From: a virus
Length of the DNA stretch: 64,000 bases
Direction: 5' to 3' (one strand)
IMG/VR virus record: IMGVR_UViG_3300004369_000008
Span: 1 to 64,000 of that record
The translations under genes were made by a program, and so were the position numbers. Shown piece after piece: positions 1-34,940 of this stretch (positions within the stretch are counted from its first letter, which is position 1; each line of letters starts with the position of its first letter). The notes beneath the pieces were generated by a model. The model was not told where the DNA came from. It worked only from the letters and a program-made list of their open reading frames with translations, and searched no databases.

Positions 1-2931
1 ATTTACAATCCATCAATCACTGGTGGAGTAGTTCTTGCTGGAAGTGCAAATTTTGGATTAGACCTTGATGAAGTTGGTGCTGGTGGTGTGGTAATTGCTG
101 GCACGACGACCTTCAAATCTGATGAAGTTGGTGCTGGTGGAGTTCTTGCTGGTGGAGTTGCTAATCAGAACTTCGTCTTCAATATCACTTCAACTGGTGG
201 AGCAGTTCTTAGCGGAACGACAACATTCACTTCTGATGATGTTGGATCAGGCGGCGTGGTTGTTTCTGGCCTCGCAACCAACAGACAGTTAAGTTCCGAT
301 TCAGCTTCGGGCGGTGTGGTTGTTTCCGGTGATGCAGATGAGAGCTTCATCTTCTTTAACGCCGCTTCGGGTGGTGCGGTTGCCGCTGGCCTAGCAAACA
401 TCTATGCAACATACAACCCTGACTTCGCTGGTTATGGAGCGGTTGCTGGTGGCGATTCAACGAGTCAATTCACAGGAAGCCAAGATGCAACAGGCGGCGT
501 AGTCACTGCTGGATCAGGTGAAGTTCAGGCCATTTACTTCATCACTTCCACTGGTGGTGGAGTTCTTGGTGGCACATCTGGCATTGGTTCAACAACTGGT
601 GATATCGATTCTACGGGCGGCGTAGTAATCGGTGGATCAGCAGACGAGTATGTCGTTTACAATCCATCAATCACTGGTGGAGCGGTTCTTGCCGGTACGA
701 CCACATTCAAAGTTGATGAGGTTGGTTCAGGTGGCGTGGTTCTTGCTGGTAATGCAGATGAAAGTTTCATCTTCTTTAACACCGCTTCTGGTGGTGCGGT
801 TGCTGCTGGTCTAGCAAACATCTATGCAACATACAATCCTGAATTCACTGGCTACGGCGTGGTTGTTGGCGGAACGGGCGAGGAGGAATTTACAGGCGAG
901 GAAGACGCAACTGGCGGTGTGATTGTTGCCGGAACAGGCACAGTTCAAGGCACTTATTTCATCACATCAACTGGTGGAGCGGTTGTCGGTGGCATTGGCC
1001 AAATTTCTGGTGAGGTTGACGAATTTGGATCAGGTGGTGTAATTGTTGGAGGAACAACAGCTACAATCTTCGTCTTCAACATCGAAGGATCAAGTGGTGT
1101 AATTGTCGGCGGCGATTCGACAACACAGTTTACAGGTAATGAAGATGCTACAAGTGGTGTAGTTATCGGCGGCGATTCGACAACACAGTTTACAGGTAAT
1201 GAAGATGCTACAAGTGGTGTAGTTATCGGCGGCGATTCAACTGTAAATGCGACATATAACATCTCCACAACTGGCGGCGTAGTCATTGCTGGCACAGGCG
1301 AGGAAGAGTTTACAGGTGAAGAAGACGCCACTGGCGGTATAGTTGGTGGTGGAACAGGAACAGCCCAAGGCATTTACTTCATCGCCTCAATTGGTGGAAC
1401 GATCCTTGGTGGTGACTCAACGAGCCAATTCACAGGAAGCCAAGACGCAACTGGTGGAGTGGTTGTTGGTGAATCGGGAGTAGAGCAGGCCATTTACAAC
1501 ATTGTTGCGAGTGGTGGAGCAGTTACAGGCGGAAGTGTATCGGCTGGGTCTGAAACAGACATCGATTCTACGGGCGGCGTGGTAATCAGTGGTACGTCTA
1601 CCAACGTCAAGATTTATCCTGAAGATGCTACAGGTGGTGTGGTTGGCGGTGGAGAAACATCTGCTGTTTACGACGAAACATCCACAGGTGGTGTAGTTGC
1701 TGGAGAAACAGCAAGCACATTCTTTGTCTTCAACATTGATGGATCGAGTGGCGTGGTTGTTGGCGGCAATGCTACTGCCAATCTGGTTGGCGGCGGATTC
1801 ATTATTGAAGGTGGGGTTGTTGTCGCTGGCGACTCTTCAACACAAGCAACTTACAACATTGACGCAACAGGCGGTGTGGTTGCAGGTGGAGACTCAACTG
1901 CATCCAAATCTTCTACAGATGATGCTACAGGCGGTGTGGTTGTAGATGGAACTGCCGTCGCAGAAAAAGCCACGGTTATTTTGGCTCTTGGAGGCGTGGT
2001 TGTCGGTGGCGATAGTCTCGATTCAATAGAAGTAAGTGAATCTGGATCAGGCGGTGTGGTTGTAAGCGGTGCTGGAAATGTAACCACCTCATCGGGTGGA
2101 GTGATTATCGATGGAACTGCTTCTTCGCAAGCAACCTATGAAATCGGAACATCGGGTGGAGTAGTTCTTGGTGGGCAAAACCAAGGCGATCTGACAGATT
2201 ACGAGTACACAGCAGAAGGAGGGATTGTTGTTTCTGGAGACGCCAAAGTCACAGGCATCAAAATGTTTGTGTATGAAGGCAGTGGCGAAATCTTCACAGG
2301 AGGAACAGCCGAAGATAAAACTGGACCAAGCCACATTGCTACGGGAGGAATCACCGTCGAAGGCGATGCAAACCTCACAGGAACAAAAGATTACATCGTT
2401 TCTGGTAAGGGTGGGATCAAGATGGGAACCAATACAACAATTGTATTCGTGCCATTTGCCACAGGCGGCATCAAAGCAGGCGGCTCGGCCTTGGTCAACT
2501 ACCTAGACTTGAGATATGAGGCCACTGGTGGAATTGTTGTATCTGGTGAAGTTGAAACACATGAGGTTTACCACTACACATGCACTCCAAAGGGATTAGT
2601 AATCATTGGTGGAACAACTGGAACGAAACACAACAGATACACTTACGAAGCATCTGGTGGTATCAAAGTCAGAGGTTCTGCTGACTTCCTCGGAGTGTTC
2701 TTTGACAGAGATTGTAAATTCGTTCATGGATTCAATTGCATTGTCAAAACACCCAATAAATACAGAGATTGCGTATTCCCATTGTACTTCTATGGAGAGT
2801 GTGCGGTATTGGATAGTTGTGAATCTGGAGTGCGTGGAGCAGTTCTTAGTGCAATTACAGCTTGTAGGCAGAAAGGACTGTTGCCAAACGTCAGAAAGAA
2901 ACCAAACAGAAAACCAGTGAGAAAAACTTAA
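1..2931 (+). CDS. Very large Gly/Thr/Val-rich repeat virion protein (fibre/whisker-like); 5' end lies outside the window
   Basis: Frame is open from base 1 (IYNPSITGGVVLAG...). Dozens of ~19-21-aa repeats built on GG[VAI]V[IVL]xG; Cys-rich, basic C-terminus. Confidence 0.75.
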   Translation: MYNPSITGGVVLAGSANFGLDLDEVGAGGVVIAGTTTFKSDEVGAGGVLAGGVANQNFVFNITSTGGAVLSGTTTFTSDDVGSGGVVVSGLATNRQLSSDSASGGVVVSGDADESFIFFNAASGGAVAAGLANIYATYNPDFAGYGAVAGGDSTSQFTGSQDATGGVVTAGSGEVQAIYFITSTGGGVLGGTSGIGSTTGDIDSTGGVVIGGSADEYVVYNPSITGGAVLAGTTTFKVDEVGSGGVVLAGNADESFIFFNTASGGAVAAGLANIYATYNPEFTGYGVVVGGTGEEEFTGEEDATGGVIVAGTGTVQGTYFITSTGGAVVGGIGQISGEVDEFGSGGVIVGGTTATIFVFNIEGSSGVIVGGDSTTQFTGNEDATSGVVIGGDSTTQFTGNEDATSGVVIGGDSTVNATYNISTTGGVVIAGTGEEEFTGEEDATGGIVGGGTGTAQGIYFIASIGGTILGGDSTSQFTGSQDATGGVVVGESGVEQAIYNIVASGGAVTGGSVSAGSETDIDSTGGVVISGTSTNVKIYPEDATGGVVGGGETSAVYDETSTGGVVAGETASTFFVFNIDGSSGVVVGGNATANLVGGGFIIEGGVVVAGDSSTQATYNIDATGGVVAGGDSTASKSSTDDATGGVVVDGTAVAEKATVILALGGVVVGGDSLDSIEVSESGSGGVVVSGAGNVTTSSGGVIIDGTASSQATYEIGTSGGVVLGGQNQGDLTDYEYTAEGGIVVSGDAKVTGIKMFVYEGSGEIFTGGTAEDKTGPSHIATGGITVEGDANLTGTKDYIVSGKGGIKMGTNTTIVFVPFATGGIKAGGSALVNYLDLRYEATGGIVVSGEVETHEVYHYTCTPKGLVIIGGTTGTKHNRYTYEASGGIKVRGSADFLGVFFDRDCKFVHGFNCIVKTPNKYRDCVFPLYFYGECAVLDSCESGVRGAVLSAITACRQKGLLPNVRKKPNRKPVRKT
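1108..1238 (+). repeat. Perfect 60-bp tandem duplication inside the fibre gene
   Basis: ggcggcgattcgacaacacagtttacaggtaatgaagatgctacaagtggtgtagttatc occurs twice in tandem, plus a partial third copy. Confidence 0.95.
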
Positions 2932-3009
2932 TGACTGATACAAACAAAGAATTTCTTGCTGGCATTTGGGACAACCCTTCCGACAGCGAATACGCTGCTT
3001 ATGAAGAAT

Positions 3010-3333
3010 TTAGGGATTGTAAACAACTCGCACTTGGGCAGTATCCTTTGAAAGTTCTTTGTAATTGATATTGTGGATGATCCTGCTAATTGTCGAAAAT
3101 GTTACACCGAACTCTTCTGCAAGTTCTTTTAGAGTGGCTCCTTCGGATCGCTTTTGTCTTATTTCGTGGGCCTTGTTCGCATCGAGCTTATTGCAGCCCA
3201 TGTTATTCTTTCGTTCAAGAATACCGTAATACTGCATCCATCTGGAAACAGTGCGTTCTGATACCTTGTATTTTTCGGCAGCCATTTGGCGGTCATTGAC
3301 GAAAGGTTCGAGTTTTTCTTTAGGTGGTCTCAT
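3010..3333 (-). CDS. Double helix-turn-helix DNA-binding protein (paralog of 34107..34460)
   Basis: HTH-like segments AAEKYKVSERTVSRW and ELAEEFGVTFSTISRII; likely start ATG 3333 (MRPPKEK), 6 nt after a TATACT box. Confidence 0.75.
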   Translation of the reverse strand: MRPPKEKLEPFVNDRQMAAEKYKVSERTVSRWMQYYGILERKNNMGCNKLDANKAHEIRQKRSEGATLKELAEEFGVTFSTISRIIHNINYKELSKDTAQVRVVYNP

Positions 3334-3413
3334 GTCTAAAGTATAATAGATGTCAAAAATAAAATTCTCGTGCATAACTAAAAAGAACCCCATTTCTTAA
3401 GAGAGGTATTTAC

Positions 3414-3836
3414 ATGGCACTTGTAGTCCCAAATTTAGGTGAGCTTGAACTGTTGGATAAAATGCTTAAAGATGCTCTGTCAGTTGACGAGGATTACATC
3501 TTGAAGCTTTTCCACACAAACGTCACTCCAGATGAAAACTCTGCTGCTTCATCTTTCGTTGAAGCAACATTTACGAACTATGCAGCACAAACCCTTACTC
3601 GTACACTTTGGAACACAGCCGTCACAAACGGTTCAAACAAAGCTGAATCGTCTTACGGTTCTTCCGCTTTGTCTTGGACATGTGGCGCAACTGGCGACAC
3701 AATTTACGGTTACTGGGTTATCGGCGCAACTTCATCCACATGTCTATGGGCAGAAGCTTTTGCAACAGCCCGTGTACTTGCTTCTAGTGATGTTTTGAAC
3801 CTTACACCCAAGTTCACATTAAATTCGGAAAATTAA
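3414..3836 (+). CDS. Small virion structural protein (paralog of 34539..34940)
   Basis: RBS GAGAGG; L.L(F/Y).N..TP...E....YA...L....W....YGY.V......LW.E.F pattern shared with 34539..34940; late-type CATAACTA motif upstream. Confidence 0.65.
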   Translation: MALVVPNLGELELLDKMLKDALSVDEDYILKLFHTNVTPDENSAASSFVEATFTNYAAQTLTRTLWNTAVTNGSNKAESSYGSSALSWTCGATGDTIYGYWVIGATSSTCLWAEAFATARVLASSDVLNLTPKFTLNSEN

Positions 3837-3855
3837 AGTATTTTTCGGAGTTGAA

Positions 3856-3903
3856 AGAAAAGTCCTCTTTTGTTACTCTAGTAGTATCAAGGAGGATTTT
3901 TCT
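3856..3903 (+). promoter_or_regulatory. RBS-sequestering hairpin upstream of HNH gene
   Basis: AGAAAAAGTCCTCTTTG pairs with CAAGGAGGATTTTTCT, which contains the RBS and abuts the ATG. Confidence 0.7.
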
Positions 3904-4761
3904 ATGCGCATTAAAGAATGCAAAAATTGCAAAATGGAGTTTGCTCCAAATGGAAATCAAGTTCATTGTTCTGTCGAGTGTCGAACTGAATTTTTCAGAA
4001 AGCGAGAAAAAGAGCAGAAGGCTAAGAAGGCGTCTGAAGCCAGAACATCAAGTCTCAAGACCTGTGAGTATTGTAACAGCGAGTTCATCTCCAGATTTTA
4101 CAATACAAACAGACAAAGATTCTGCTCTCAACAATGCAAATCAGATTTCCACAAAGACAACAAGACAAAAAGTTTGAAGGGTGAAGCTGATCTTTCACCT
4201 CGGAAATGCCAACATTGTGACAAAGAATTTATACCCAAATTTAACTCAAATCATCAACGACAATTGTTCTGCAAATCTCTCTGCAAAAAGGAATTTCATA
4301 AAGAGCAGACGAGAATTAAGACAGAAGAAGAGCGTGCCAATACAATCAAGATGTGCCCCATCTGTGACAAAGAGTTTTCACCCAAGAAAACGATGAAGCA
4401 AATCTACTGTACGAGGAAGTGTGCCAACTCAATTCAAAAAAGAGTTTACGGCATGATGAGAAACTGTTACAATCTCACCAATTCCACTAAGGCCGATCAT
4501 GCACATGAGGTATTAGGTTATTCTCCGAGTGATTTACTGGAGTATCTGGAGAAGTTCCCTCAGTGGAAGAGCTTAAGAAACCAGAAGTGGCATCTCGACC
4601 ACAAGTTCCCGATCATTGCTTTTGTGCGTAAAGGGATCGCTGATATCTCATTGATCTGTAGATTGGACAACTTGCAGCCATTGGCGGGAAGTGTGAACTG
4701 CAAGAAGAGTGACATATACGACGAAGAGTTGTTTGAGGAGTGGCTCAATAGCGAAAACTAA
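3904..4761 (+). CDS. Free-standing HNH homing endonuclease with N-terminal Zn-ribbon repeats
   Basis: Four CxxCxxxF...(F/Y/H)CxxxC repeats; WHLDHKFP...RLDNLQPL...N.KK HNH core. Confidence 0.85.
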   Translation: MRIKECKNCKMEFAPNGNQVHCSVECRTEFFRKREKEQKAKKASEARTSSLKTCEYCNSEFISRFYNTNRQRFCSQQCKSDFHKDNKTKSLKGEADLSPRKCQHCDKEFIPKFNSNHQRQLFCKSLCKKEFHKEQTRIKTEEERANTIKMCPICDKEFSPKKTMKQIYCTRKCANSIQKRVYGMMRNCYNLTNSTKADHAHEVLGYSPSDLLEYLEKFPQWKSLRNQKWHLDHKFPIIAFVRKGIADISLICRLDNLQPLAGSVNCKKSDIYDEELFEEWLNSEN

Positions 4762-4847
4762 TCTGTGATTTTTCACTAGATTGCGATATAATAAGTCTTG
4801 ATTGGGCAAACCAATCAAGGCTTATTTCGTTTCATGGAGGAATACAG

Positions 4848-5717
4848 ATGAAATTAAGACCCTTCCTCGTTGCTGCCACTGTGTTTTTGACAGGATTCAT
4901 GTGTTTCACCATCTGGTATAAGATTGTAAATGTTGGCGAGCCTCCGGTGTCAAAGATTGACGAGAAGATACATGTGCAAACCGAACCAATTGAGACACAA
5001 CCCAAACCAGTCGTTCCCGAATTGGTTCTAAAGCTGAACCAGAAGAACTCTCAAATCCATTCTTTAAGATGCGAAAACATGGATGTCAAGGTTTGGCAAG
5101 ATGGTATGCGTGTTCATCTTTCAGGCGAAGTGTATTACGAGAAACCCTTAAAGTTTCGGATGTTTATTAGTTCTATTTTTGGAAAAGAACTTGATCTAGG
5201 CGCAAATGAAGAGGTGTTTTGGTATTGGTCTCGGCGAAATAAACGAGAGGGGCTGTTCTATGCCAGATATGAGGATTTCTTCAATACTCGTCTGAAAACT
5301 CCCTTTGGCCCTGTGTTTTTGCGTGCATCCTTTGGGGTTGACGAGCTTCCCACAGAGAATGCAAAATTTGTAGAGGACGAAAAGGGTGTCTTGGTCGTGG
5401 TTCAAAGTAAGAACTCGATGGGAAAATCAGTCAACAAATACACATTCATCAATAAGCAGACCGAACTTATCGAAGGATATCTGATTTCTTATGAGGATGG
5501 TAAGAAATCTGCGTCAGCCGAGATTATGGAACATGAGAATGGACTACCCAAGAAAATTCTGTTCACATACTACGAAGAAGACCAGATCATGCAACTTGAG
5601 TTAAGCAACATTCAAATGAATGCGTCAATTGACGGGAAGATGTGGCAAATACCTTCAATCCAACCTCAGATCAATATGGGCGAACAAGCTGGTGCGGCAG
5701 TTCAATATGATGAATGA
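4848..5717 (+). CDS. Membrane-anchored periplasmic protein, possibly LolA-like fold
   Basis: N-terminal hydrophobic helix; beta-rich body with ELDLGANEEVFWYWS; RBS GGAGG. Confidence 0.45.
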   Translation: MKLRPFLVAATVFLTGFMCFTIWYKIVNVGEPPVSKIDEKIHVQTEPIETQPKPVVPELVLKLNQKNSQIHSLRCENMDVKVWQDGMRVHLSGEVYYEKPLKFRMFISSIFGKELDLGANEEVFWYWSRRNKREGLFYARYEDFFNTRLKTPFGPVFLRASFGVDELPTENAKFVEDEKGVLVVVQSKNSMGKSVNKYTFINKQTELIEGYLISYEDGKKSASAEIMEHENGLPKKILFTYYEEDQIMQLELSNIQMNASIDGKMWQIPSIQPQINMGEQAGAAVQYDE

Positions 5718-27914: not shown

Positions 27915-28691
27915 TTATATAGCCTTTTTGCTCAACCATTTCTCAAAGGCTTCTTCATCGTATTTAGCATGTTTAACATTGTTTGCAACCTGAGTGACTG
28001 GCCTGAGATTATCTAAACGATTGATTAAGGTGATATCATCAATTCCATGATCCACAAATACCTTAATTGGCCAGATATGGTCTATGTGCCAATTGCCATC
28101 TTTCACCTTCTCCCAGTTGGGGTGTTGAGTGATATGTTCTTGAAGTTCCTTCGGGCCATAACCAAGCATGTCGCTAGTGCGACCCACCTTATCTTTGCCT
28201 ACAGCTTTGAGAGAAGAATTGAGAGCCTTGTAACATCGTTTGCGGAAGAGATCATTGAGCCGTTTCTGCTTTCGATCTTCTATCCATCCATGGTTGCCTG
28301 ATACTGTGTTCTTCTGGCGACCACACTCAAAACAGTATTGGCCTTGGTGATGAAACCCAGCAAAGGTGATCTTTGACTCACTGCCGCATTTGCAAATGTA
28401 GCGATGTTTATGATGAATGCCCATGAACTCATCATCAAGAAACTCGCACCCACGATCCTTGAATATCTGCTTCACTTGTTTGAGTGATCGCTTTTTAGAC
28501 TGGCCGTGCTTAGTGCAATTGCCACATCGTTTTCCCTTGGTGAAATTGTTCCAAGTGGTTGTTCCATAACATCCGCAACTACATTTGTAATCCATTGGCA
28601 ACATACATCCAACGTATTCATCAAGTAGCTCACATCCTTGTTCCTTGAAGTATTGAGCCGCCTCTTCTGTTGTTCTTTTAAGCTTTCCCAT
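27915..28691 (-). CDS. Free-standing HNH homing endonuclease (related to 3904..4761)
   Basis: CxCG...CxxC repeats; LGY.P.EL..H, WHIDHIWP, RLDNLRP...N..K, YDEE.FE.WL. Confidence 0.85.
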   Translation of the reverse strand: MGKLKRTTEEAAQYFKEQGCELLDEYVGCMLPMDYKCSCGCYGTTTWNNFTKGKRCGNCTKHGQSKKRSLKQVKQIFKDRGCEFLDDEFMGIHHKHRYICKCGSESKITFAGFHHQGQYCFECGRQKNTVSGNHGWIEDRKQKRLNDLFRKRCYKALNSSLKAVGKDKVGRTSDMLGYGPKELQEHITQHPNWEKVKDGNWHIDHIWPIKVFVDHGIDDITLINRLDNLRPVTQVANNVKHAKYDEEAFEKWLSKKAI

Positions 28692-28733
28692 AACAAAGCC
28701 TCCTTACACATATAGTAGTAAGGAGGCTTTGTT
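28692..28733 (-). promoter_or_regulatory. Perfect 16-bp hairpin sequestering the HNH RBS
   Basis: AACAAAGCCTCCTTAC-TACTATATGT-GTAAGGAGGCTTTGTT-ATG. Confidence 0.85.
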
Positions 28734-28768
28734 TTCAATCCAGAGTGATTGAATGTTTTCAATCCAAT

Positions 28769-33425: not shown

Positions 33426-34120
33426 CTAAAATCAGGGTTGACATCAGACGGGAGTGCTTTCACTAGGAAGCCTCCCGTTTTTGGTTCAATCTCTTCAACT
33501 CGCCACCATCGACTCTCTTTTCTGCGTGGCATGATAACAGAACCTTTGGTCATTGTTTTCACACACCAGAAGACAATCTCTAGGTCGTTTTCATCGACAA
33601 CGACAGCATCAAAAACAAACTTGTCTCCGTATCTGTTCATCTTATATTCTGTTCCATACAGATCATCCTTCATTGTAATCTGTACGACTGGGGCACAATG
33701 AAACTCCATGCCTCGCTCACTAAAAATACGAGCCACTTGAGAACTGACATTGAACTCTTTGACTTCTTCCTTTGGTAGCAACATTGGTGCGCTTGTCTCA
33801 AATTCATCAATCACTGGTGACTCTTCTTCAACAACAGCGATTTCAGTCAATGGCTTGGAAGACTTGAGTTCATTCACGAACTCAAAAGGTGGAATCCATT
33901 CAGCATTGGGACGAAGATCAAGTTCTTCAGCGATATCAATTTGTGGATGCTCTTTCTTAAACTTCTCTTCGGGAGAAACTGGGTCTTTAGCAATCTCAGA
34001 ATCCCATGAGAAATTATGCAGGACCAGTTTGGATTTATCCCAATCCAGAGCTTGGTCGTTCATCAAAGGATTTGGTCCTCTGAGCTTGTAGACCTTTCCT
34101 TGTTTATCACGAATTGGCAT
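33422..34120 (-). CDS. Hypothetical protein; N-terminus resembles 35769..36341
   Basis: MPIRDKQGKVYKLRG vs MGIKNQDGTPYNVTG. Confidence 0.6.
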   Translation of the reverse strand: MPIRDKQGKVYKLRGPNPLMNDQALDWDKSKLVLHNFSWDSEIAKDPVSPEEKFKKEHPQIDIAEELDLRPNAEWIPPFEFVNELKSSKPLTEIAVVEEESPVIDEFETSAPMLLPKEEVKEFNVSSQVARIFSERGMEFHCAPVVQITMKDDLYGTEYKMNRYGDKFVFDAVVVDENDLEIVFWCVKTMTKGSVIMPRRKESRWWRVEEIEPKTGGFLVKALPSDVNPDFS

Positions 34121-34460
34121 GTTTGTATCCTAACTTCACATCTGCTTCACCGCCAATTACAAAACTTGTAATGTTTCGGTGAATGCTATTGTTGACAATT
34201 TTGCTGATGAGTGACTGACTCACTTGGTATTTATCCGCCAGTTCAGTTTGCGTGTATTCTTTCGTTTGATACAAGGTGCGTATCTCGCCCACTTGTAGGC
34301 TTTCCAATCTATCCAAACCGAAGTTTGTGAGTCCATTAGCTTTCAAAACTCGATTGAGAGTTCTTCTACTAATATGGAACTGTTCGCAGACTTCTTGTCG
34401 TGATTTCTCAGAAACTAATAGCTTGAGGTCGTTTATGTTCAAATCTCTTATTTTGGCCAT
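34107..34460 (-). CDS. Double HTH DNA-binding protein (paralog of 3010..3333)
   Basis: EVCEQFHISRRTLNRVL; TQTELADKYQVSQSLISKIVNN. Confidence 0.8.
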   Translation of the reverse strand: MAKIRDLNINDLKLLVSEKSRQEVCEQFHISRRTLNRVLKANGLTNFGLDRLESLQVGEIRTLYQTKEYTQTELADKYQVSQSLISKIVNNSIHRNITSFVIGGEADVKLGYKHANS

Positions 34461-34538: not shown

Positions 34539-34940
34539 ATGGCACTTGTATGTCCCGATGTTAAAGGTGAGATTCTTCTCCTGCAATACATTGTTGGTAT
34601 GGTAAATGCTGACAATCCCGTTCTCCATTTGTATGGTAACGACATAACTCCATCTGATTCTACAGTCATTGGCGATTTGACCGAGGTTGCTGGTGCAACT
34701 GGGTATGCGTCAGTTACTCTGCTGTCAGCAAACTGGACAACTACTCAATCTGCTGGTGTGACCACGGCTGTTTACTCTGAGCAGACATTCACATTCACGA
34801 CAGATGCGACTTCTTATGGATACTACGTTACAGACGAGAGTAACAACTTGCTGTGGCTTGAGAGATTCAGCGGCGCACCGTTTGATATACCTGATGGTGG
34901 AGGTACGATCAGTATTACGGCTAAGCTGACGCTTAGCTAA
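34539..34940 (+). CDS. Small virion structural protein (paralog of 3414..3836)
   Basis: MALVCP..GE..LL; LHLYGNDITP; GYA...L....W; YGYYV; LWLERF; CATATATA upstream. Confidence 0.65.
   Translation: MALVCPDVKGEILLLQYIVGMVNADNPVLHLYGNDITPSDSTVIGDLTEVAGATGYASVTLLSANWTTTQSAGVTTAVYSEQTFTFTTDATSYGYYVTDESNNLLWLERFSGAPFDIPDGGGTISITAKLTLS

Follow-up and report, generated by a model that had tools for sequence, protein, structure and literature searches.

How does an endonuclease gene come to end in the same five residues, in other codons, as the structural gene in front of it? This question is raised by a 64,000-nucleotide (nt) stretch of viral DNA (the window; positions 1 to 64,000 of IMG/VR virus record IMGVR_UViG_3300004369_000008), in which the gene of a conserved phage structural protein, here called the host gene, is followed by the gene of an HNH-type endonuclease, here called the HNH, and both open reading frames (ORFs) end in LNSEN. 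The original prediction was that a mobile element had inserted just inside the 3′ end of the host gene, taken over the original terminus in frame and supplied a synonymous replacement for it. By comparison with relatives (loci labeled L001-L163 and protein homologues labeled P0002-P0163), we conclude that a free-standing HNH homing cassette (approximately 3819-4743, possibly from 3804) probably occupies the last codons of the host gene as a terminus-replacement cassette of the fungal-mitochondrion type. The features of the locus, all on the plus strand, are as follows; RBS stands for ribosome-binding site.

3414..3836 (+), host gene: 140-aa conserved phage structural protein, fibre-associated and gp80-like; full length and uninterrupted
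3801..3818 (+), codons L130-T135 of the host gene (CTT ACA CCC AAG TTC ACA): putative core of the HNH target
3819..3836 (+), copy A: putative cassette-linked replacement of LNSEN and stop, with which the host gene now ends; the same sequence in L055, near-identical in L002
3837..3903 (+), cassette spacer: two hairpins, promoter-like elements and the RBS of the HNH
3904..4761 (+), HNH-type endonuclease gene: 285 aa, the last 6 codons being copy B
4744..4761 (+), copy B: putative displaced native-type host terminus, read in frame; gives the HNH its last 6 codons and its stop
4762..4847 (+), native-type intergenic region: TTGCGATATAAT (TATAAT at 4787-4792), a 16-bp terminator-like hairpin at ~4793-4825 and the GGAGG RBS of the next gene
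4848..5717 (+), downstream gene: 289 aa, with an N-terminal membrane helix

One terminus in two genes

The host ORF ends TTA AAT TCG GAA AAT TAA (3819-3836; L136 N S E N140 and stop) and the HNH ORF (3904-4761) ends CTC AAT AGC GAA AAC TAA (4744-4761). The two copies, A and B, encode the same peptide in different codons, exactly as had been predicted, and differ at 6 of 18 nt, all synonymously and including a TCG/AGC serine switch; only the predicted start of the match at 3816 has to be moved, as 3816 belongs to the preceding ACA codon (T135) and copy A begins at 3819. That all six differences are synonymous suggests that each copy served as a functional gene end until recent times.

In the host-gene family, no C-terminus is commoner than LNSEN (24 of 120 homologues). 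HNH homologues share a conserved ..F-E-x-W-L, and the 2-16 residues behind it are hypervariable. Three more of these homologues end, directly before their stop, in host-gene tails: P0138 in ..WLSEKFTLQSQN (tail KFTLQSQN), P0158 in ..WLQQFTLTHT (tail QFTLTHT) and P0163 in ..WLAELTLNSEN (tail LTLNSEN). Each tail is a variant of the host-family terminus joined at a different residue, making four junctions including that of the window. The four host-tail HNHs are 37-44% identical and fall in four separate clades, in which their neighbours lack such tails. Because LNSEN is the commonest host-family end and such fusions recur, the shared LNSEN and stop are not a chance match, and in the sequence comparison it is the recurrence that is decisive. 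Pure coincidence could appeal to the W-L-N that is frequent in the HNH family (L057 reads WLNTSS.. and P0156 ends WLNSG). Because some natural tails begin with WLN, only SEN and the stop are fully independent; the host-derived part of the HNH tail may be only (N)SEN and the stop, and an L-N microhomology may have guided the junction. However, even SEN plus stop at that spot would be expected by chance at only ~1e-5 for this gene pair by our rough, uncomputed estimate. With three further independent fusions, and with an 80-nt block behind the junction that behaves as native flank (see below), coincidence is hardly credible. In a shuffle test of the 3′ flank, the observed score was reached in 1 of 100 shuffles.

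Function or convergence might also explain the shared pentapeptide: both proteins could, for instance, require it as a C-terminal signal, in which case it would be no recombination scar. In the AlphaFold model, the HNH tail does form the end of the final nuclease-domain helix (H274-284). However, the tails after W-L are hypervariable in both length and sequence, the sister HNH of L055 has lost the motif, and in the other fusions the junctions fall at differing residues and the tails reproduce differing variants of the host end (QSQN, THT), as DNA capture predicts. We regard a functional origin as very improbable.

Segments that travel with the HNH

We compared alleles of the same host gene without the HNH (19) and with it (at least 12). 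The former include L001/L003 and 17 further alleles, L004 and L006-L008 among them. In L001/L003, the gene ends CTG AAC AGC GAA AAC TAA; 85 nt containing a terminator hairpin then separate it from the homologue of 4848-5717, with no HNH. An HNH of the same family directly follows the gene in L002, L005, L055, L057, L058, L059, and L063. Presence and absence are thus sporadic at one conserved locus, as is characteristic of free-standing homing endonucleases, and the HNH tree does not follow the context classes.

Sequence around the left border is mosaic. Between the window and L055, whose HNHs are 72% identical, the gene bodies are 70-77% identical, whereas all 30 positions of 3816-3845 are the same. 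Between the window and L002, whose HNH is only 45% identical, the best-conserved stretch is 3792-3854 (17-18 of 21 positions per bin, ~85%). In a three-way comparison, similarity is mixed or L057-like up to 3803, the last site shared with L057; at all 19 informative sites from 3819 onward, 5 of them in the coding part, the window sides with L055. Codons of the ..LNL TPKFTL.. segment are also more alike in pairs of HNH-bearing alleles (0.75) than in other pairs of similar body identity (0.64-0.65). Such co-converted flanks around an element are typical of homing endonucleases. Because of the identity peak to L055 and L002, the similarity switch and the likeness of the target codons, we take copy A and the spacer to travel with the HNH.

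These comparisons bear out much of the original prediction. Insertion just inside the 3′ end agrees with the similarity switch at 3803-3819 and with the introns that relatives carry at the equivalents of 3802|3803 or 3809|3810. A replacement end supplied by the element is supported by the 30/30 match to L055 and the ~85% match to L002 against gene bodies of ~70-75%. The host protein is indeed preserved, being full length and ending in the family consensus. Codons 3801-3818 contain both the mosaic breakpoint and the equivalents of the two intron sites. Because group I introns of relatives sit at equivalent positions, these 3′ codons are probably the target of the family. In the HNH-bearing L005 (1380-1416), the host protein reads LNLSLNFTLNKE and stop in place of LNLTPKFTL.., a non-synonymous change of TPK to SLN within the putative target; judged from its sequence, this allele is possibly a resistance variant.

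The right edge and copy B

The native-type region behind copy B (4762-4847) is 86 nt long, compared with 85 nt in HNH-less L001, and folds at −41.5 kcal/mol (z −6.2). The element TGCGATATAATAA and the hairpin are common to the window and L061. A pattern scan for TGCGATATAATAA..TTG returned 44 loci, none encoding the host gene, the HNH or the downstream gene, and we discarded these as chance matches.

L057 has the closest gene body (~85% nt identity) and fixes the right edge of the cassette at TGGCT|C. Similarity of its HNH to that of the window stops at TGGCT, and the block of ~80 nt that follows in the window (4744-4823; copy B, 16 nt, TTGCGATATAAT and the 16-bp hairpin) is absent after the L057 HNH, which reads on into the RBS of the next gene (..WLNTSSWRIK and stop). 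L057 has its native end (CTT AAT AGC GAA AAT TAA) and a terminator upstream of its cassette, which starts with a pseudo-end, ACC TCC AAA TTT ACG CTT AAT ATT GAA AAA TTT (TSKFTLNIEKF). A 5-nt direct repeat, ACCTC, flanks this cassette (1224-1228 and 2116-2120), and if the cassette is taken out together with one repeat, what remains could plausibly be a native intergenic region: the terminator, TATACCTCTTCATGGAG and then ATG. In L055, the HNH has the same junction, TGG CTC AA, and reads through a decayed copy B (..WLKNKSMIFNQVAI and stop). As far as these alignments go, the HNH ORF of the window/L057/L055 clade is without a stop codon of its own at the right edge of the cassette. Copy B matches the native end of L057 at 16 of 18 nt and copy A at 13 of 18; against the end of L001 the counts are 16 and 11 of 18, read over only 18 nt and with L001 being GC-rich. 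The 16/18 match, the native-type 86-nt region that follows, and the lack of the same block after the L057 HNH together support the predicted in-frame takeover of the original terminus.

The polarity could be the reverse: copy A would be the resident terminus, and the cassette would have inserted after the stop, bringing copy B along as a relic of an older fusion in another phage. The decayed copy B of L055, homologous and at the same junction, shows that copy B can travel with the HNH, and some HNH-less alleles are TCN-spelled like copy A. However, copy A and the spacer are the most conserved parts among HNH-bearing genomes with diverged bodies, and similarity switches within the gene. All six codons of copy B are preserved, with synonymous changes only, as one would not expect of an old relic under weak tail constraint, and the copy runs straight into a native-type terminator and intergenic region. 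Reverse polarity is thus unlikely, though it is the strongest of the rivals considered here.

Several observations weigh against a terminus-replacement cassette as we describe it. The comparison of 16/18 with 13/18 rests on five informative coding positions. The nearest HNH-less allele compared has 75% protein identity, so that the predicted empty site was not seen directly, and among public runs, two that are probably the sources hold the stretch and two others gave only short contigs that do not bridge the HNH, with no HNH-less joint seen. Empty alleles were predicted not to carry the TTA AAT TCG spelling; among the distant ones, the serine codon is AGY in about 13, as predicted, and TCN, the serine spelling of copy A, in 6 (among them L145, L162, L163, and L154). 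We therefore rejected the AGY/TCN serine codon as a marker of empty and occupied alleles, since it does not separate them cleanly. The decayed copy B of L055 means that the fusion predates the window lineage, unless homing renews it; because the common ancestor of the window and L055 arrangements had both copies, "native" has to mean either an earlier event or a refreshment at each homing. The natural WLN-type tails shorten the surely host-derived part. Concerning the enzyme, Pfam matches at E up to 0.1 include no HNH model, being confined to NinG and zf-FCS in the zinc-ribbon part, and all Foldseek matches of its nuclease domain are weak (E-values of at least 0.66).

Introns and pseudo-ends in relatives

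The host genes of L060, L062, L064, and L081 contain ORF-less group I introns (RF00028, 70-94 bits). In three of them, the intron lies after the second nt of the Leu/Ile codon that precedes TPKF (CT|T ACN; L060 2680-2907, L062 2642-2874, L081 2672-2899), and in L064 (658-898) it lies between the P and K codons (CCT|AAG). All four are within 7 nt of the window breakpoint, and their equivalents, 3802|3803 and 3809|3810, bracket the left edge of the breakpoint interval 3803-3819. In all four, exon 2 (the last 8-10 codons) and the stop are followed by a free-standing HNH of the window family, outside the intron. The window has no RF00028 signal in 2800-5200 at E up to 5 and displays neither the layout of collaborative homing nor an intron-encoded endonuclease.

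Descent of the window from an L060/L062-like allele, in which recombination with an intronless allele or a spliced copy removed the intron and duplicated exon-2 sequence, would account for introns at exactly these codons and for the exon-2-like copies that follow the HNH in L060 (TPKLTLI and stop) and possibly in L081. However, the window retains no trace of an intron in that search, the HNH of the relatives is already outside the intron so that intron loss needs no duplication, and the intron-associated HNHs are scattered over the HNH tree. This makes intron ancestry quite unlikely, less so than chance or function but more so than reverse polarity.

The host gene is rich in introns among relatives (L081 1650-2930, L059 2235-2460, L062 2026-2262, and L060 1926-2115), and a group I intron follows approximately its first six codons at several loci. 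L081 has three RF00028 matches, two of which are separated by an exon of only ~24 nt (A Q D D V L N L). A gap of ~190 nt between residues 93 and 94 in L081 (2145-2338) and L060 (2385-2572) has no Rfam match.

Extra copies of the host end occur around the HNH in relatives. L057, L058 (ILNLTSKFTLTCEF and stop), and L072 (IIPKITLD) have direct pseudo-ends after the real stop and ahead of the HNH, and inverted copies are found in L059 (2896-2931, minus strand, NITPKFTLECE and stop), L062 (2954-2971, minus strand, TPKFTLISK), L064 (~991, minus strand), and the window itself (3838-3861, minus strand); the copy after the HNH in L060 is direct. The L059 copy differs from the real end in 7 of the first 8 codons, only synonymously, and the L062 copy differs only at synonymous positions. 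In translated comparisons, several of these copies were matched by 0 of 100 shuffles; translated comparisons are significant, whereas ungapped 18-nt comparisons of host tail and flanks are mostly non-significant per locus. Judged from their sequences, these copies may be relics of foreign alleles. Alternatively, by analogy with the I-TevI operator (PMC2988022), they may be binding sites of an enzyme that reads non-wobble positions. The inverted copies could be products of fold-back repair.

The endonuclease

The HNH starts 67 nt after the host gene and encodes four Cys4 zinc-ribbon modules (residues ~1-175) and a nuclease domain (~195-280) with the motif D232-H233 ... N256 ... N265. W229-H-L-D232-H233, N256 (in NLQP), and N265 are invariant in 29 and 17 homologues, giving the motif W-H-L-D-H ... 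N-L-Q-P ... N-x-x-K. The HNH catalytic motif comprises a general-base His on strand 1 (often within D-H or H-H), a structural Asn and a metal-binding Asn/His on a helix. The window enzyme carries this superfamily motif in the order D-H ... N ... N, which we take to be that of I-HmuI. It also matches phrog_1271, "HNH endonuclease" (8.9e-14), and the HNH paralogue in the window has weak HNH_3 and HNH_4 scores (E 0.15-0.17). AlphaFold models have a predicted local distance difference test (pLDDT) score of 86.7 for the protein and 84.1 for the nuclease domain, which consists of strands 64-68 and 92-96 (domain-model numbering) plus helices. Foldseek matches of this domain are almost all HNH (NmeCas9 HNH, Gme HNH, ScoMcrA, BrxU, colicin E9, and I-HmuI), and VIA-align gives Z 3.7 against the BrxU nuclease domain; matches of the whole protein are dominated by zinc-finger arrays.

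The two halves of the gene have different histories in L057. Between the HNHs of the window and L057 (1303-2115), the nuclease half (4344-4743) is 93-100% identical in nt, and the zinc-ribbon half is ~50% identical with many gaps, which in sequence has the appearance of a module swap within the gene; the zinc-ribbon half is presumed to bind DNA. L056 (746-1378) encodes a shortened relative of 192 aa, 83% identical over residues 92-275 and diverging after ..AYDSDK; its surroundings are unrelated and include no host gene.

A second HNH of the same family lies in the window at 27915-28691 on the minus strand (258 aa, ending ..FEKWLSKKAI and stop). The gene upstream of it, also on the minus strand, ends ATC ACC ATG GAT TAG. 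The spacer between them (28692-28768) holds two exact copies of the 12-nt direct repeat TGGATTGAAAAC and a pseudo-end, ATC ACT CTG GAT TGA (ITLD compared with the real ITMD, each followed by a stop), after which come the same −35-like TTGAAA and the same RBS-sequestering hairpin as ahead of the first HNH.

Predicted expression signals in the spacer

The spacer folds at −29.8 kcal/mol (z −4.1), and none of 200 shuffles folded as well. In hairpin 1 (3819-3854), copy A pairs with an imperfect inverted copy of itself, with the host stop codon in the loop; the inverted match, 13 of 18 nt, was reached in 6 of 300 shuffles. Hairpin 2 (3856-3903) is long, and its 3′ arm holds the RBS of the HNH, AAGGAGGA. 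The same layout of hairpin and RBS precedes the HNH in 8 relatives, including L002, L005, L010, L055, L067, L071, and L072. A −35-like TTGAAA (3851-3856) and a −10-like TACTCT (3874-3879) suggest that the spacer has its own promoter; a consensus promoter scan made no call there. Transcripts from such a promoter would start inside hairpin 2 and leave the RBS free; in those that read through from the structural gene, it would stay closed.

This arrangement resembles the control of I-TevI (PMC2988022), in which a stable hairpin sequesters the RBS on read-through transcripts and a promoter-like element lies within the hairpin. As with the I-TevI operator, relatives carry target-like sequences upstream of the endonuclease ORF. 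The present case differs in being read from sequence and folding only, and in that the target-like copies are often inverted with their amino-acid reading preserved.

The host gene and its neighbourhood

The host protein has 384 homologues (56-91% identical), the closest being P0002 (91%), P0003, and P0005. Its relatives score 26.8 bits on PF23140, "Podophage GP4 fiber I protein gp80", at the border of the cutoff (27), and a giant repeat-containing, fibre-like ORF (1-2931) precedes the gene. Homologues are found on contigs of 150-530 kb and in Planctomycetes assemblies, and the IMG/VR record is 73,986 nt long and estimated to be ~15% complete, suggesting that the source phage is very large. 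A blastn search against the phage collection gave no match.

Homologues of the downstream gene (4848-5717) directly adjoin the host gene in L001/L003 and L137 and come after the HNH in L002, L057, L061, L062, L063, and L064; where the HNH is missing, 4848-5717 is thus the gene conserved to the right of the host gene. On the other side, a minus-strand ORF with a double helix-turn-helix (HTH; 3010-3393) is divergent from the host gene. We considered it as a DNA-binding remnant of the endonuclease and rejected this, as it adjoins the host gene in HNH-less L001 and also in L002. The same pairing recurs at 34107-34460 beside a paralogue of the host gene, and from these contexts the HTH gene is a conserved resident module.

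That paralogue (34539-34940, plus strand, 133 aa) ends ..ISITAKLTLS and stop, with no HNH after it in the window. Its homologues elsewhere (L010, L071, L072) are followed by a distinct clade of the HNH family (support 100/100), and pseudo-ends ahead of the HNH beside such homologues read IIPKITLD, KLSLN and stop, and INSKINLD and stop.

Proposed mechanism

A terminus-replacement cassette would work as follows. At the left end of the proposed cassette, a foreign, synonymously different copy of the terminus (LNSEN and stop) completes the host protein. Next come a predicted promoter of the cassette's own and the hairpin and then the HNH ORF, which, lacking its own stop (..E-E-W|), runs into the displaced native terminus, followed by the native terminator and intergenic region. 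In mixed infections, the enzyme would cut or nick HNH-less alleles in the conserved ..LNL TPKFTL.. codons, and repair would copy the cassette from the HNH-bearing genome. A left crossover inside the gene would co-convert copy A. On the right, the recipient's own terminal codons would be kept beyond the break, so that copy B would be renewed with each homing event. The occupied allele would escape re-cutting because its target is split and respelled; relatives would solve the same problem by an ORF-less group I intron at the same spot.

We hold a wider version of this scheme only tentatively, and would sooner doubt it than adopt it: one HNH lineage would alternate at one target between an ORF-less intron and an intron-free cassette as two means of leaving the gene functional and itself immune, the stop would be borrowed from the recipient with the stranded end recording its allele, and the copies at the left border would be autorepression operators.

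Comparison with known systems

The closest precedents are the mORF "gene hybrids" of fungal mitochondria, in atp6 of Allomyces macrogynus and in atp6, atp9, cox2, and nad3 of Glomus sp. (PMC3630166), so that the fungal analogy drawn in the original prediction is documented. In both settings, a conserved gene carries an endonuclease ORF within its 3′ end, an in-phase foreign C-terminus that differs from the native one mostly synonymously completes the gene, and the native C-terminus is left stranded behind the ORF. In the fungal genes, this stranded copy is closer to the native sequence of relatives (PMC3630166), as copy B may be here. The mORFs of atp9 and nad3 border immediately on the native piece, that of nad3 being in phase with its gene (PMC3630166); the order in the window, copy A, HNH and copy B, is of the mORF type. 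The window differs in that its host is a phage rather than an organelle, its enzyme is an HNH with a zinc-ribbon array rather than LAGLIDADG or GIY-YIG, and its duplication spans only 6 codons. Moreover, the ORF is not fused to the host gene but set apart by a stop, a hairpin and its own RBS, and the enzyme takes the stranded end as its own terminus and stop codon.

In collaborative homing, an ORF-less group I intron is paired with an adjacent free-standing endonuclease, as in T3/T7-like phages and the ICP1 terminase (PMC10448857) and in the psbA intron of cyanophage S-PM2 with F-CphI (PMC6083498). L060, L062, L064, and L081 have exactly that layout, with the HNH immediately downstream of exon 2, although their enzyme family differs from F-CphI. 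Unlike these, the window is without an intron, and its target appears to be interrupted and respelled by the terminus copy of the cassette. The T4 seg and mob genes provide intronless homing by free-standing endonucleases, the mob enzymes being HNH nickases with a separate DNA-binding part (PMC2988022). They share with the window a free-standing position between conserved genes, variable presence and co-conversion of flanking markers, but they are intergenic and cut at a distance in the neighbouring gene, and no duplicated, respelled gene end is described for them (PMC2988022).

We found no phage case of terminus replacement in the published literature. What is particular here is that the stranded six-codon end serves as the terminus and stop of the enzyme, that this fusion recurs with different junctions, and that intron and intron-free solutions coexist in one enzyme family at one site.

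Implications

To our knowledge, homing endonucleases have been thought to enter essential genes safely only within introns or inteins and otherwise to stay intergenic. Terminus replacement, documented in fungal mitochondria, would be a third route, of which this locus is a probable example in phages. The same enzyme family is found at the same codons in four states, namely the empty gene, the cassette with a duplicated end, tandem pseudo-ends, and the ORF-less group I intron with its endonuclease. The origin of endonuclease-intron partnerships, a long-standing question, thereby becomes comparable within one family, and the series defines short synthetic substrates for asking what protects the occupied allele. 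For annotation, it is a warning that the C-terminal residues of such endonucleases, and the intergenic pseudo-ends beside them, are scars of host genes.

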